Source: an uncultured Azospirillum sp. (GTDB lineage Bacteria > Pseudomonadota > Alphaproteobacteria > Rickettsiales > UBA3002). Taken from it: a stretch of 64,000 nt of DNA. Of this stretch, positions 36,817-39,639 are shown one piece after another (the stretch's first letter is position 1; each line of letters begins with the position of its first letter). Both the position numbers and the translations under genes were made by a program. The stretch covers positions 1,410-65,409 of the forward strand of contig CAZGXX010000007.1 in NCBI GenBank assembly GCA_964530085.1, written 5' to 3'. The notes under the pieces are model-generated. The model ran no database searches, had not been told where the DNA came from, and saw only the letters and a list, made by a program, of their open reading frames with translations.

Positions 36817-39639
36817 CTAGCTGATGGTGAACGGGATGCTGGGGGCTTGCGTATTCACCGGCGTGCTGCTGCCGGTTGGCGCGGCGACCGAGCCAATGGA
36901 GCTTTTGGCACCGTTGATCGCGAGCATCTGGCCGTGGCGCATCGCAAGCCCTTGCAGCTTTTTGAAGTCCATCGACATAATCGCCGCACCGACCTCTTTA
37001 TCGGACTTCATGGAGGCGACGAAGGCCTGATTCTGAAGTGCCGCCGCGATGCCGGGATGGGTTTCCACCAAGGGGTTGGTGGTGGTTGTGGACGCCACGG
37101 TGGTAGGGGCAGGCGCATTTTCGTCATAGCCGGTGATGCTGTCTGCAATCGATCCGCCGGCTTTACTGCCGAAATAGTAGCCCGCTGCACCGACAATACC
37201 TCCGATAATTGCTGCAGGAACAGCAGTTATCCCACCGATCGCGCCAATAGCGGCGCCGGTGCCTGCACCCGCACCGATTGCAGTGATAAGGCCACCCGCC
37301 ACGCGTCCAGCGCTGTGTGCCACTGCTTTAGTATTGCCTTCTCCTGCGGCGGTGACGCCATGATACACATCGCCAACGGCCATAATACCAGTGCGGATGG
37401 GTCCAGGGATAAATGCAGCGGCTTTGCTTGCACCGCTCGCCAGTGGTCCTAAGGTGCGCAACGATGTGGCGATACCTGTACCCACAACAGAGGCATTGAA
37501 TCCCACCTCTGCGCCTTCCGAGATGGCGCTCACTTTAGCCATTTTCTTTTCAGCATCGCGCTGCTCTTTCGAGGCTTCTTTCTTGACGGTGTCGTCAAGC
37601 TGCACCATTTTTTGCAGCGATTTAACGGCGGAAACTTTCTGCTCCGGCGTGAGGATGCTGCCAGAGATAACGCCTTGTTGTTCAAGCTGTGCTACCATTT
37701 GCGTGTAGGCTTCCGGCGTGTTGGCAAGCGTGCGTAGCGCGTTGATTTGATCACCACCCACCAGACGCACATTCACGCCCTGAGCGAGCAATGTTTCATC
37801 CAGCTTGCTAAATTCTGCCGACGCCGCCGTTTGAACCGATGCTTCCACTGCTTCTGCTTTGGGTGAAATGAGATTGCTTCCAAGTTCGCCCAGCTTGCGA
37901 CCACCGAAGAAGCTTAACAGACCAACGCCTGCAACTGCGAGCGGTTTGAATTTACCCGGTACAAAACGGATGATAGCGGCTTCTGCGGCGGCAGTGCCAT
38001 ATTTCGATCCTGCCCAGCCACCACCAATCTGTGCTGCGTTCTCGGTCACGCCGTGCATGTCGCCTTGGAGCAGTGCAAAGCCGCCCTGAATCGCATCCAT
38101 ACCATAGACCATTTTCGCACCACCGCTTTTATGTGCGCCTTTTTCAGCGATGGTCATCAGGTTCGAGCCAATGGTGCCGATACCTTTACCCAGCAGTGCA
38201 CCACCACGGTTGAAGATGTCGTATTTACCGAGCTTTGGATGGATATGCGTCAGAATGGACTCTGATTCTGCAAATGTCTTGATGTTTTTACCTAATAGCG
38301 CTTCACGCTCAATCACGCGATTCTTAAAAGGATCTGCTTTTGGCGCTGCTTTAGCCTCGGCAGCAGCAGCTTCTTTATCGAGCATATCCGCACGTACAGG
38401 ATCCGGAAGGGTGTGACCGGTGACTTTACCCCAAACGTTTTTAATTGGAGAACCGCCTGCGCGTACGGCATCCGCCTCTGCTTTAAGAGCTGTCCCCTTT
38501 CTCGTTTCGTATTTATAGCGCATGGCAGACACGCTTTTTTCACCCACCATCATACTCATCGTGCCACGGGCGACACCATGCGCGATGTCGGCAGTGACGG
38601 CGACCCCCACTGTTGCAGCCACAGGATTCTTAGCGAGGTCTTTTGCGCTATTGGCGATAGTGCCCATTTTCTCTTTTACAATATCAAGCGCGCGTTCCGA
38701 GTCGCTTTTGAGTGGGGTTTCTTTCAGTTTCTTCTTTACTTCTTCGGGATTTTTAGGCGTTTCTACGCCTTCGCCCGTGAAATGGGGAGCAGGGTTGCTG
38801 GCATCCGAAGAATCGATGACCTGAATACTGCCATCCTTAGTCATGATGACGCTGTCATCGCGATTGAGGAAGCCGAGAGTGGTGGTTTTTTGTCCGCCGA
38901 TTTCCGGCAGTTGCTCAAGCGATTTTTGCACCCGTTCATGATAATTGTCGCGCCCTTCGTCTTTGAGCAGGCCGTCCCATGTCGCGTCTTTTTTGTTGAG
39001 GCCCCAGACATCGCCCTCGTGATTCACCCAGCCACACACTGTGCTGACGGCGAATTTGATGGCCGCCATCAGGTAATCGCCGATGCTGCTTTTGCCGGTC
39101 TCTGTTGCCACCTGCGCCGCACTGGCATAAGCCGTGCCGATTGATTTTGCTTGTTCCTCGGTGAGATCGGCACCGCCGAACTGGTCCATTATTTTGCTGC
39201 CGGTTTCAAAGATGCCAGCAATCGCGTTGACGGGAAGCATGGCGCCGTCTTTCACCGCGCCGATGATTCCGGCTGCATCTTCGCCGTAAATCTTGATACC
39301 TGCTTCTTTGCGGCGGGCGTTTGCTTCGTCCACCAGTGCGCGTACTTTATCGGTCATGCCAGCAACGGCATCGGCACCTTTTTTCATGGCTTCGTCGAAC
39401 ATGCCGCGTTCTTTTTCATCGAGATGTTTCACTTTTTTGAAAATCATCATGATGCCTGCGGTCTGGTCGGCAGCTTTTTGATATTCTGCGGAGAGGGCGG
39501 GGGTGCCTTCTGGCGCTACGACGCGTTTGCCGTCCTTGTCGATGCTGTAGAGCACGCCATCCGTATCGCGATAGGCGTATTTCATCACATCCAGTGCGAG
39601 GGGGGTTTCGTTGATTTTTTTAGCGTCATTCTCAGACAT
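36817..39639 (-). CDS. 940-aa orphan protein with a C-terminal Gly/Ala-rich glycine-zipper hydrophobic segment
   Basis: Long uninterrupted ORF with AGGAG 6 nt upstream of the ATG. No family recognised and no obvious Sec signal. Near the C-terminus: GGLITAIGAGAGTGAAIGAIGGITAVPAAIIGGIVGAAGYYFGSKAGG. Confidence 0.7.
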   Translation of the reverse strand: MSENDAKKINETPLALDVMKYAYRDTDGVLYSIDKDGKRVVAPEGTPALSAEYQKAADQTAGIMMIFKKVKHLDEKERGMFDEAMKKGADAVAGMTDKVRALVDEANARRKEAGIKIYGEDAAGIIGAVKDGAMLPVNAIAGIFETGSKIMDQFGGADLTEEQAKSIGTAYASAAQVATETGKSSIGDYLMAAIKFAVSTVCGWVNHEGDVWGLNKKDATWDGLLKDEGRDNYHERVQKSLEQLPEIGGQKTTTLGFLNRDDSVIMTKDGSIQVIDSSDASNPAPHFTGEGVETPKNPEEVKKKLKETPLKSDSERALDIVKEKMGTIANSAKDLAKNPVAATVGVAVTADIAHGVARGTMSMMVGEKSVSAMRYKYETRKGTALKAEADAVRAGGSPIKNVWGKVTGHTLPDPVRADMLDKEAAAAEAKAAPKADPFKNRVIEREALLGKNIKTFAESESILTHIHPKLGKYDIFNRGGALLGKGIGTIGSNLMTIAEKGAHKSGGAKMVYGMDAIQGGFALLQGDMHGVTENAAQIGGGWAGSKYGTAAAEAAIIRFVPGKFKPLAVAGVGLLSFFGGRKLGELGSNLISPKAEAVEASVQTAASAEFSKLDETLLAQGVNVRLVGGDQINALRTLANTPEAYTQMVAQLEQQGVISGSILTPEQKVSAVKSLQKMVQLDDTVKKEASKEQRDAEKKMAKVSAISEGAEVGFNASVVGTGIATSLRTLGPLASGASKAAAFIPGPIRTGIMAVGDVYHGVTAAGEGNTKAVAHSAGRVAGGLITAIGAGAGTGAAIGAIGGITAVPAAIIGGIVGAAGYYFGSKAGGSIADSITGYDENAPAPTTVASTTTTNPLVETHPGIAAALQNQAFVASMKSDKEVGAAIMSMDFKKLQGLAMRHGQMLAINGAKSSIGSVAAPTGSSTPVNTQAPSIPFTIS

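Follow-up and report, generated by a model that had tools for sequence, protein, structure and literature searches.

A fast-evolving alphaproteobacterial protein family with a Pho-box promoter and a glycine-zipper hairpin, encoded beside the tmRNA gene

In Escherichia coli, the canonical spacing between Pho box and -10 element is 10 nt. Regulators of the OmpR family in general recognize direct repeats with an 11-bp phase at the -35 position. The Gly-zipper segments of phage lysins and tape measures are thought to enter the host membrane. Caulobacter SpmX and the chlamydial Inc proteins (bilobed hydrophobic domain) combine a conserved N-terminal domain, a spacer that evolves rapidly and varies in length and, close to the C-terminus, a hydrophobic two-helix hairpin of ~40 to 60 residues, with no Sec signal. 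The Pho box is built from two direct-repeat units of 11 nt (7 nt conserved, 4 nt less so) with the core CTGTCAT, and is also found in Sinorhizobium meliloti (PMC4415409). The PhoB motif from chromatin immunoprecipitation sequencing in Caulobacter contains two copies of YGTCAYR with an A-rich 4-nt spacer (bioRxiv 10.1101/741363). DUF6861 has been described as a Gly-zipper membrane domain that is fused to polymorphic-toxin domains (bioRxiv 10.1101/2022.08.23.504947). Here, we describe a gene from 64,000 nt of DNA of an uncultured alphaproteobacterium (contig CAZGXX010000007.1, positions 1,410 to 65,409; the window). It encodes a protein of 940 amino acids (aa) and lies between thyX and ssrA, the gene for transfer-messenger RNA (tmRNA). 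Its recognizable parts, a Pho-box promoter and a glycine-zipper module, are of known kinds, and the family itself is new.

The gene and its two neighbors are as follows.
36817..39639, minus strand: coding sequence of the 940-aa protein, with the ATG at 39639..39637 and the stop codon at 36817..36819; orthologues in 10 lineages; ratio of nonsynonymous to synonymous substitution (dN/dS) 0.20
35777..36745, minus strand: thyX (Thy1), downstream of the 940-aa gene and on the same strand
39754..40124, plus strand: ssrA, an alphaproteobacterial two-piece tmRNA gene, upstream and divergent (Rfam, 208 bits)

It is the longest open reading frame (ORF) of the window. An earlier note on this DNA had described it as the largest gene, placed between thyX and ssrA, and the ORF list and the Rfam tmRNA match agree. 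ARAGORN did not report a tmRNA at 39754..40124, the gene matched by Rfam. The stop codon lies 71 nt from the thyX start. The GC content of the gene region was 0.518, and that of third codon positions (GC3) was 0.57, both below the flanks. The gene is real, since it has been kept in 10 lineages and has a dN/dS of ~0.20 against a 79%-identical relative.

The promoter was compared in ten independent lineages (the window, L002 to L007 and L012 to L014). In the window, 114 nt separate the ATG from the tmRNA gene. The layout is TTGTCAC ACAA CTGTCAC - 15 nt - CTGTCAT AAAA CTGTAAC - ctttctcTGg - TAGGAT - 9 nt - AAGGAG - 6 nt - ATG.
39646..39651, minus strand: Shine-Dalgarno sequence AAGGAG, 6 nt 5' of the ATG, present in 10 of 10 lineages
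39661..39669, minus strand: extended -10 element TGgTAGGAT; TGn plus TAnnnT was read directly in 10 of 10 lineages
39677..39694, minus strand: proximal Pho box CTGTCAT AAAA CTGTAAC at the -35 position, 10 nt 5' of the -10 element
39710..39727, minus strand: distal Pho box TTGTCAC ACAA CTGTCAC; a second upstream box is also present in L002, L003 and L004

The sequence CTGTCATAAAACTGTAAC differs from the E. coli Pho-box 18-mer at 1 position. With up to 2 mismatches, the 18-mer matched twice in the 64-kb window (0.41 expected), both times in this promoter. The ten proximal sites have the consensus CYGTCAT-MAAA-CTGTCAY and end 36 to 42 nt before the ATG. Each stands exactly 10 nt from TGnTAnnnT. 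Motifs were counted on both strands of 179,789 bp from seven lineages. The strict pattern C[CT]GTCAT-N4-CTGT[CA]A[CT] occurred 7 times, always in these promoters (0.02 expected from shuffles). A looser pattern occurred 13 times, and 11 of the occurrences were in these promoters (0.39 expected from shuffles). In three further, more divergent lineages, the same box is present and ends 36 nt before the ATG. Spacers and upstream sequence diverge, but the boxes are kept between proteins that are 29 to 44% identical.

The promoter scan found no TTGACA-like -35 element. With an extended -10 element and no -35 element, this looks like an activator-dependent promoter. The activator-type promoter claimed earlier for the gene can thus be described more closely, as a Pho box in canonical geometry in all ten lineages. 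Because the motif equals the published Pho box and the anatomy is of the activator type, we infer a place for the family in the Pho regulon. The gene is very likely activated by PhoB and induced by phosphate starvation.

The protein is a member of a previously undescribed, fast-evolving family that is limited to one uncultured alphaproteobacterial group. The full-length protein had 0 matches in Pfam and 0 in PADLOC. It had nothing significant in NCBIfam (only GvpT, at E = 0.35), and a single-sequence search of PDB sequences gave only E >= 0.08. One marginal match was to a phage "endolysin" in PHROG (E = 3.7e-4, residues 695 to 837). A word-indexed search of 5.8 billion proteins with the single query returned only one relative, P0002 (44% identity). 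In the same search, a 31-sequence profile added no new relative, and an N-domain-only profile brought up nothing at all, not even the query itself. An exhaustive HMMER profile search of 1.84 billion representatives retrieved 90 proteins at E <= 1e-3, of which 29 reached E <= 1e-10. About 35 clusters (50% identity) among these matches have more than the zipper in common with the 940-aa protein, which is therefore not the "orphan" it had been called. That it falls in no recognized family was borne out, and no confident match to a housekeeping family appeared in the sequence and structure searches run. The family is unnamed, is modeled in neither Pfam nor NCBIfam and has no structural relative among the libraries searched. 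Ten clusters were looked up, and these were unnamed or "hypothetical" singletons from metagenomes and metagenome-assembled genomes (MAGs). The sole organism label among the relatives was "Rickettsiales bacterium" (Lake Mendota MAG). Pattern scans of metagenomes and of genomes retrieved one locus each. Gly/Ala-rich queries seem to saturate the candidate list of the word-indexed search. A search of this kind can miss an entire family when the query has such a composition.

The family is modular. The parts of the window protein are as follows.
38770..39600, minus strand: N-module, residues ~14 to 290, common to ~25 family members
37840..38622, minus strand: middle helical module, residues ~340 to 600, in a family subset only (P0004, 5, 8, 9, 20, 23, 32 and 36)
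37900..38028, minus strand: second Gly-rich, weakly hydrophobic stretch, residues 538 to 580 (IGGGWAGSKY...PGKFKPLAVAGVGLLSFFGGRK), with a low predicted local distance difference test score (pLDDT)
37120..37557, minus strand: pre-zipper and zipper module, residues ~695 to 840, widely shared in the family
37165..37302, minus strand: glycine-zipper helical hairpin, residues 780 to 825, a 46-residue uncharged run
36820..37119, minus strand: C-terminal tail, residues 841 to 940, with a DPGIAAA-like block followed by V-x-[IV]-G-A-V

The conserved N-terminal block begins at residue ~14. The N-module contains the conserved blocks DVMxYAYRDxDGxLYxID, GGxxxxxExAxxIGTAYASAxQVA and RxxDNxRVxxEMxKLxxIGG. 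Members with the middle helical module have a divergent N-terminus, and the stretch at residues 538 to 580 is conserved inside this subfamily. The region from ~600 to 780 is present in few members only. The tail has an uncharged S/T/P/A-rich end and a hydrophobic-x-hydrophobic-S terminus. The extreme N- and C-termini are conserved in the family. Members are between 477 and 995 aa long. At 477 aa, P0010 is the shortest full member and still has the N-module, the zipper and the tail, so the middle behaves as an expandable spacer.

Residues 1 to 620 are rich in Ala, Gly, Lys and Glu. No signal peptide was found, and the N-terminus is hydrophilic (maximum Kyte-Doolittle value over 10 residues of 0.73 in the first 40). 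The protein contains no Walker A/P-loop, HExxH or GxSxG motif, and self-BLAST found no internal repeat. It has no RTX repeat, and its pI of 7.3 is not acidic. Cysteine makes up 0.11% of the protein versus 0.79% of 37 other window proteins (P = 0.005). What the earlier note had described in the sequence agrees with these results. It had described hydrophilic, Lys/Ala/Glu-rich N-terminal two thirds and the absence of a Sec signal, a nucleotide-binding motif and internal repeats. It had also described two Gly-rich stretches. The Gly/Ala/Ile stretch near the C-terminus starts at residue 780 and has 54 residues as quoted, 46 of them (780 to 825) uncharged. The second, shorter and mid-protein, is the one at residues 538 to 580.

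The hairpin occurs family-wide as a G-rich helix, an (A/I)P(G/A)A turn and a second G-rich helix, with a central conserved Pro (AVPAA in the turn). Conserved basic residues flank it, as ...GD-K-x5-GR before and as ...GSKAGG-IAD or GKRYD after, and these too are kept across the family. The Gly/Ala/Ile stretch contains 30% Gly, 26% Ala and 17% Ile, with GxxxGxxxG at residues 791, 795 and 820 inside the uncharged run. The whole protein has 24 [GAS]xxxGxxx[GAS] motifs versus 11.7 +/- 3.5 in shuffles. At the motif level, the hairpin belongs to the glycine-zipper class, with repeated (G/A/S)xxxGxxx(G/A/S) in an uncharged segment of membrane-spanning length. Its best 19-residue window has a Kyte-Doolittle value of 2.02, a transmembrane call. 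On the Hessa scale, with approximate scale values and position effects ignored, the best 19-residue window scored +2.7, versus a family median of +3.0 and a median of -0.6 for the inner-membrane proteins of the window. By this scale, the hairpin is only marginally hydrophobic. This would fit a soluble or export-competent segment that inserts conditionally, often via self-association, rather than a constitutive anchor inserted by Sec/YidC. The hairpin probably mediates conditional membrane insertion of the 940-aa protein.

A module of ~130 aa with this zipper recurs in phage tail, type VI secretion system (T6SS) and toxin proteins. Among the proteins that share the zipper module only, 8 have DUF6861 and 3 have a T6SS VgrG3-like C-terminal domain. 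Peptidase M23, peptidase M15_4 and Zeta toxin were found in one each, and Gly-zipper_Omp or TraT in a few. Family members matched the phage "endolysin" (6), tail-associated lysin (5) and tape-measure (2) families of PHROG. One member matched a T6SS-effector family of NCBIfam. The isolated zipper segment of the window protein had no Pfam match at E <= 1 except DUF3482 at 0.29. Neither the full-length protein nor the isolated zipper matched DUF6861 (PF21724). For Gly-zipper_Omp, _OmpA and _YMGG, the window protein was below threshold, and relatives reached only E of 0.29 to 0.4. As judged from these profiles, the likeness to DUF6861, phage and T6SS zippers is a resemblance of modules, not membership. 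Membrane targeting by a glycine zipper, as had been suggested for the protein, is plausible, given the conserved hairpin and the recurrence of its module in proteins that are ejected or secreted and penetrate membranes. The marginal hydrophobicity fits conditional insertion.

The structure was predicted with AlphaFold. A 2-sequence alignment gave a pLDDT of 34.6. A 31-member alignment gave a mean pLDDT of 68 and a predicted template modeling score of 0.43. The confident regions (pLDDT of 80 to 98) were residues 20 to 70, predicted as a small alpha/beta unit, and residues 160 to 320, 350 to 500 and 600 to 700. They were modeled mostly as long helices with few beta-hairpins, and 350 to 500 was predicted to be helical. 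The Gly-rich and hydrophobic segments at 503 to 597 and 786 to 818 had low confidence in the model. Foldseek of the 31-sequence model found no match at E <= 0.001 in PDB (best 0.65) or BFVD (best 0.033). The best BFVD matches were long helical phage proteins, including tape measures, with template modeling scores (TM-scores) of <0.2. Matches to GltPh, condensin and axonemal proteins were dismissed as long-helix noise. In a profile search of PDB sequences, the sole match was to the zipper of a tape-measure protein from a phage (E = 0.018). Nothing in the libraries searched is thus a recognized structural relative of the domains modeled with confidence.

The gene lies directly beside the tmRNA gene in 10 of 10 lineages. 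The two are divergent in 9 of these and tandem in L003 (tmRNA at L003 9325-9689), where ssrA or the big gene underwent a local inversion and adjacency was retained. The usual order is sspB-ssrA-gene-thyX, with UPF0114, mrp/parA, hflKC and degP farther away. In L005, purN/purM take the place of thyX. No integrase, phage, secretion-system, chaperone, immunity-like, toxin or PAAR/VgrG/Rhs gene is adjacent in the 10 contexts, and no small ORF lies in the 71 nt before thyX. The immunity-like genes or secretion loci that the earlier note had proposed to look for near homologues were thus absent there. No recognizable toxin domain was found in the protein itself with Pfam, NCBIfam or PADLOC. A tblastn search of 50,697 phage and 72,556 plasmid records retrieved no relative. 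The conserved chromosomal locus, the lack of mobile genes and the lack of phage or plasmid homologues indicate that the gene is chromosomal and has been inherited vertically within one clade. Its constant position beside ssrA may be inherited synteny. It may also reflect regulatory coupling of the gene to the ssrA promoter through the Pho boxes ~30 nt away.

A sigma70-like sequence (TTGCTA-17-TATATT) is present at 39758-39786 on the plus strand, at the 5' edge of the Rfam tmRNA match; the distal Pho box lies ~30 nt away. The window and L002 do not differ in this stretch. With promoters back to back, PhoB binding could in principle affect ssrA transcription. In L003, the spacer between the tmRNA and the big gene contains a match to the Whalefall-1 small RNA of Rfam (9753-9806, plus strand; 38.2 bits versus a gathering score of 37). 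It resembles a palindromic repeat rich in GC.

The protein diverges faster than its neighbors. Between the window and four to five lineages, ThyX was 78 to 89% identical, Mrp was 74 to 77% identical, and HflK was 67% identical. The 940-aa protein was 29 to 35% identical in the same lineages, over 40 to 70% of its length. Against the 79%-identical relative (residues 598 to 931), dN/dS was 0.20 overall and 0.13 to 0.26 per sub-region. No positive selection was found in this comparison with one close relative (omega of 0.13 to 0.26 over residues 598 to 931). The protein is fast evolving but under purifying selection, with no blanket arms-race signal at this scale.

In L011 (1-3111), the C-terminal 342 aa of a close relative (P0003) are joined abruptly, inside the conserved FFGGRKLGE block, to an unrelated gene for a pyridoxal phosphate-dependent decarboxylase. 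The contig has 2.6x coverage, and the fusion is probably a chimera of the assembly rather than a truncated paralogue. The sequence was used for dN/dS only, because the low-coverage assembly looked chimeric.

We tentatively prefer to read the protein as one that is Pho controlled and acts from the cytoplasm at the producer's own inner membrane, as a scaffold or a membrane-modifying protein. This is possible rather than probable. Judging from promoter anatomy and conservation, phosphorylated PhoB would bind the Pho box or boxes that replace the -35 element and would recruit RNA polymerase to the extended -10 element. The product, made without an export signal, would be a soluble, almost all-helical cytoplasmic protein. 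It would consist of an N-terminal alpha/beta and helical module, a helical spacer of variable length and the C-terminal zipper-hairpin module. The hairpin, probably too weakly hydrophobic for a standard translocon anchor, would most likely insert post-translationally, probably via zipper self-association. Both of its flanks, with their conserved Lys/Arg, would stay on the entry side. The site of action would be the cytoplasmic face of the own inner membrane, where the protein may serve as a phosphate-starvation-specific scaffold or modify the membrane. This membrane is the most economical site because no secretion, chaperone or immunity partner is linked to the gene in any lineage. The housekeeping locus, the purifying selection, the basic hairpin flanks and the lack of an export signal argue for it as well. 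Most Pho-regulon genes serve the cell's own physiology.

Several points weigh against this reading. No phoB/phoR or pst genes, whose promoters would be the natural comparison for the motif, were located in the sequence examined. The only response regulator of the window (54115-54858, plus strand) is of the OmpR family and scored 157.9 bits for PhoB versus a cutoff of 296. No activity could be assigned to the N-module. The Hessa estimate is as approximate as stated above. An exported effector would be fitted at least as well by the marginal hydrophobicity, the cysteine depletion, the fast divergence with module shuffling, the conserved termini, and the zipper-module relatives in ejected or secreted proteins.

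The earlier note had suggested a secreted effector or toxin, or else a stress-induced membrane protein. The part on stress gained strong support from the Pho box in 10 of 10 lineages, and the stress would be phosphate starvation because this box is conserved. The part on the effector lost from the lack of any immunity, secretion or toxin gene and from the dN/dS of ~0.2.

An exported effector or toxin that penetrates membranes under phosphate limitation is nevertheless the best of the alternatives, although somewhat unlikely. It would leave the cell through an unlinked route, such as a type I or type IV secretion system (T1SS or T4SS), T6SS, the flagellar system, vesicles or lysis. Its zipper would insert in the membrane of a neighbor or host and would permeabilize it or anchor the N-module, for example, to release phosphate-containing nutrients. 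The zipper module is related to T6SS VgrG3-like (3), DUF6861 (8), M23/M15 peptidase and Zeta-toxin proteins and to the lysin, "endolysin" and tape-measure families named above, and one member matches the T6SS-effector family. This likeness to secreted proteins is limited to the compositionally biased module, and the protein's own zipper is below every Pfam threshold. A segment of such marginal hydrophobicity would escape being trapped in the inner membrane of the producer. Cysteine depletion, conserved termini and module shuffling favor export, as does the 29 to 35% identity versus 67 to 89% in the neighbors. Against this stand an omega of ~0.2 with no region above 0.26, the lack of an RTX repeat and the pI of 7.3. 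The sole named source is a "Rickettsiales bacterium" MAG, and the Rickettsiales are an order rich in scattered, signal-less effectors. The loci speak against an effector. What is adjacent in the 10 lineages includes neither an immunity-like ORF nor a secretion apparatus, a chaperone, PAAR/VgrG/Rhs or a toxin domain, and the stop codon is only 71 nt from the thyX start.

A bolder form of the same idea is unlikely. The protein, poor in cysteine, without a signal and rapidly diversifying, would be a new phosphate-starvation weapon or harvesting device with unlinked export, in which the zipper, similar to those of phage tails and T6SS, penetrates a foreign membrane and the N-module liberates phosphorus from the other cell. 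The clade would possibly be host or prey associated, and the back-to-back ssrA promoter might couple expression to the control of ribosome rescue.

It is quite improbable that another OmpR-family regulator, responding to another envelope or nutrient signal, binds the direct repeats, with the rest of the model unchanged. The absence of phoB from the sequence examined and the presence of an OmpR-family regulator at 54115-54858 would fit this, as would the other genes with the motif, which have no known function. The specific PhoB motif of both E. coli and Caulobacter has just this core, YGTCAY, and this A-rich 4-nt spacer, and the single mismatch to the E. coli 18-mer also speaks for PhoB. The regulator at 54115-54858 is probably not the PhoB that we place at this promoter. 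Its best NCBIfam matches were MtrA/KdpE, and a hybrid histidine kinase is encoded nearby (55482-57179, minus strand).

A Pho-like box followed by 10 nt and TAnnnT was also found elsewhere, in L004 (21612-21629, minus strand), L007 (17521-17538, minus strand) and L014 (~2669-2686, minus strand). The genes behind these promoters have no Pfam family. They encode proteins of 223 aa and 550 aa in L004 and, in L007 and L014, one of 367 to 384 aa beside tadA. They do not validate the regulator, because they belong to no known family. They could be additional Pho-regulon members of the clade.

A domesticated remnant of a phage or genomic island integrated at ssrA, with a tape-measure- or tail-lysin-like gene as single cargo, is very improbable and was rejected. 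In its favor, ssrA is a classical integration site with the gene beside it in 10 of 10 lineages, tape-measure and tail-lysin families show weak similarity, and local GC and GC3 are below the flanks. Elements integrate at the 3' end of ssrA, however, whereas the gene is found on its 5' (promoter) side in 9 of 10 lineages. None of the loci contains an integrase, an att repeat or a phage gene, and the phage and plasmid records contain nothing similar. The viral Foldseek matches had E >= 0.033 and TM-scores of <0.2, and the N and middle modules have no phage relatives.

Other genes of the window were also noted. A 138-aa ORF without a family (40811-41227, minus strand) is another clade-specific unknown near the big gene. 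It and sspB lie tail to tail, with a 4-nt overlap at the 3' end of sspB. Its syntenic counterpart on the P0002 contig was called at 269 aa and has no Pfam match. The second-largest gene (8492-11182, plus strand) encodes an 896-aa DUF2339 predicted membrane protein and lies 3' of a gene for a major facilitator superfamily transporter. A DUF4062 ORF (18295-19368, minus strand) has a GC3 of 0.36 versus 0.6 to 0.8 in its neighbors. It is within a low-GC stretch (0.504) that abuts tRNA-Arg (19368-19444), and it may be a small foreign or defense-type insertion. The ORF at 46581-47267 was considered as a T6SS TssL/DotU-like gene and rejected in favor of MotB; a MotA/ExbB-family ORF is adjacent. The MotA/MotB pair (46581-48145) is a stator.

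The Pho-box footprint is among the cleanest, being present in 10 of 10 lineages with proteins of <35% identity, and the Pho regulon is one of the most thoroughly studied stress regulons of bacteria. It offers a specific handle on an opaque hypothetical protein of an uncultured alphaproteobacterial clade: phosphate limitation should induce the gene. The family adds a chromosomal context without toxin fusion for a zipper module that is otherwise found in phage tails, T6SS spikes and polymorphic toxins. If the protein is exported, phosphate scarcity would be linked to membrane attack on other cells. If it is kept inside, it would represent a membrane scaffold of a new kind, specific to starvation.

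Compared with Pho-regulon promoters of the pstS type (E. coli, S. meliloti and Caulobacter), this promoter has the same repeat units, the same spacer and the same replacement of the -35 element 10 nt from the -10 element. Tandem boxes, as in some lineages here, also occur in Pho-regulon promoters. Typical Pho genes encode a transporter, a phosphatase or a lipid-remodeling enzyme, whereas here the product is a large protein without a family, and PhoB is read from the boxes.

DUF6861 has a similar GxxxG-type zipper hairpin. Its profile was matched by 4 family members and the 8 zipper-only relatives. One relative passes the gathering score, at profile positions 44 to 78 only (~35 zipper positions). 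The DUF6861 zipper is N-terminal in polymorphic toxins, whereas that of the 940-aa protein is C-terminal with no toxin domain fused.

Phage lysins and tape measures (phrog_10341, phrog_1047, phrog_167 and phrog_10613; PDB 9ki1_g) are also long and helical with a Gly-zipper segment, and the similarity covers residues ~695 to 837. Unlike these, the 940-aa protein has no phage context, no match in phage genomes and no lysin domain, and the structural similarity is insignificant.

Outer-membrane lipoproteins of the Glycine-zipper 2TM, Gly-zipper_Omp, YMGG and Rick_17kDa kinds share the helix-turn-helix zipper hairpin and stress-induced expression. SlyB is one that resembles the protein in both respects. 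The 940-aa protein is ~10 times larger than these lipoproteins and has no lipoprotein signal peptide.

SpmX and the Inc proteins match it in overall layout. The 940-aa protein differs from them in having no lysozyme-like domain, no PDB similarity and no type III secretion system seen, and the likeness is an analogy in architecture.

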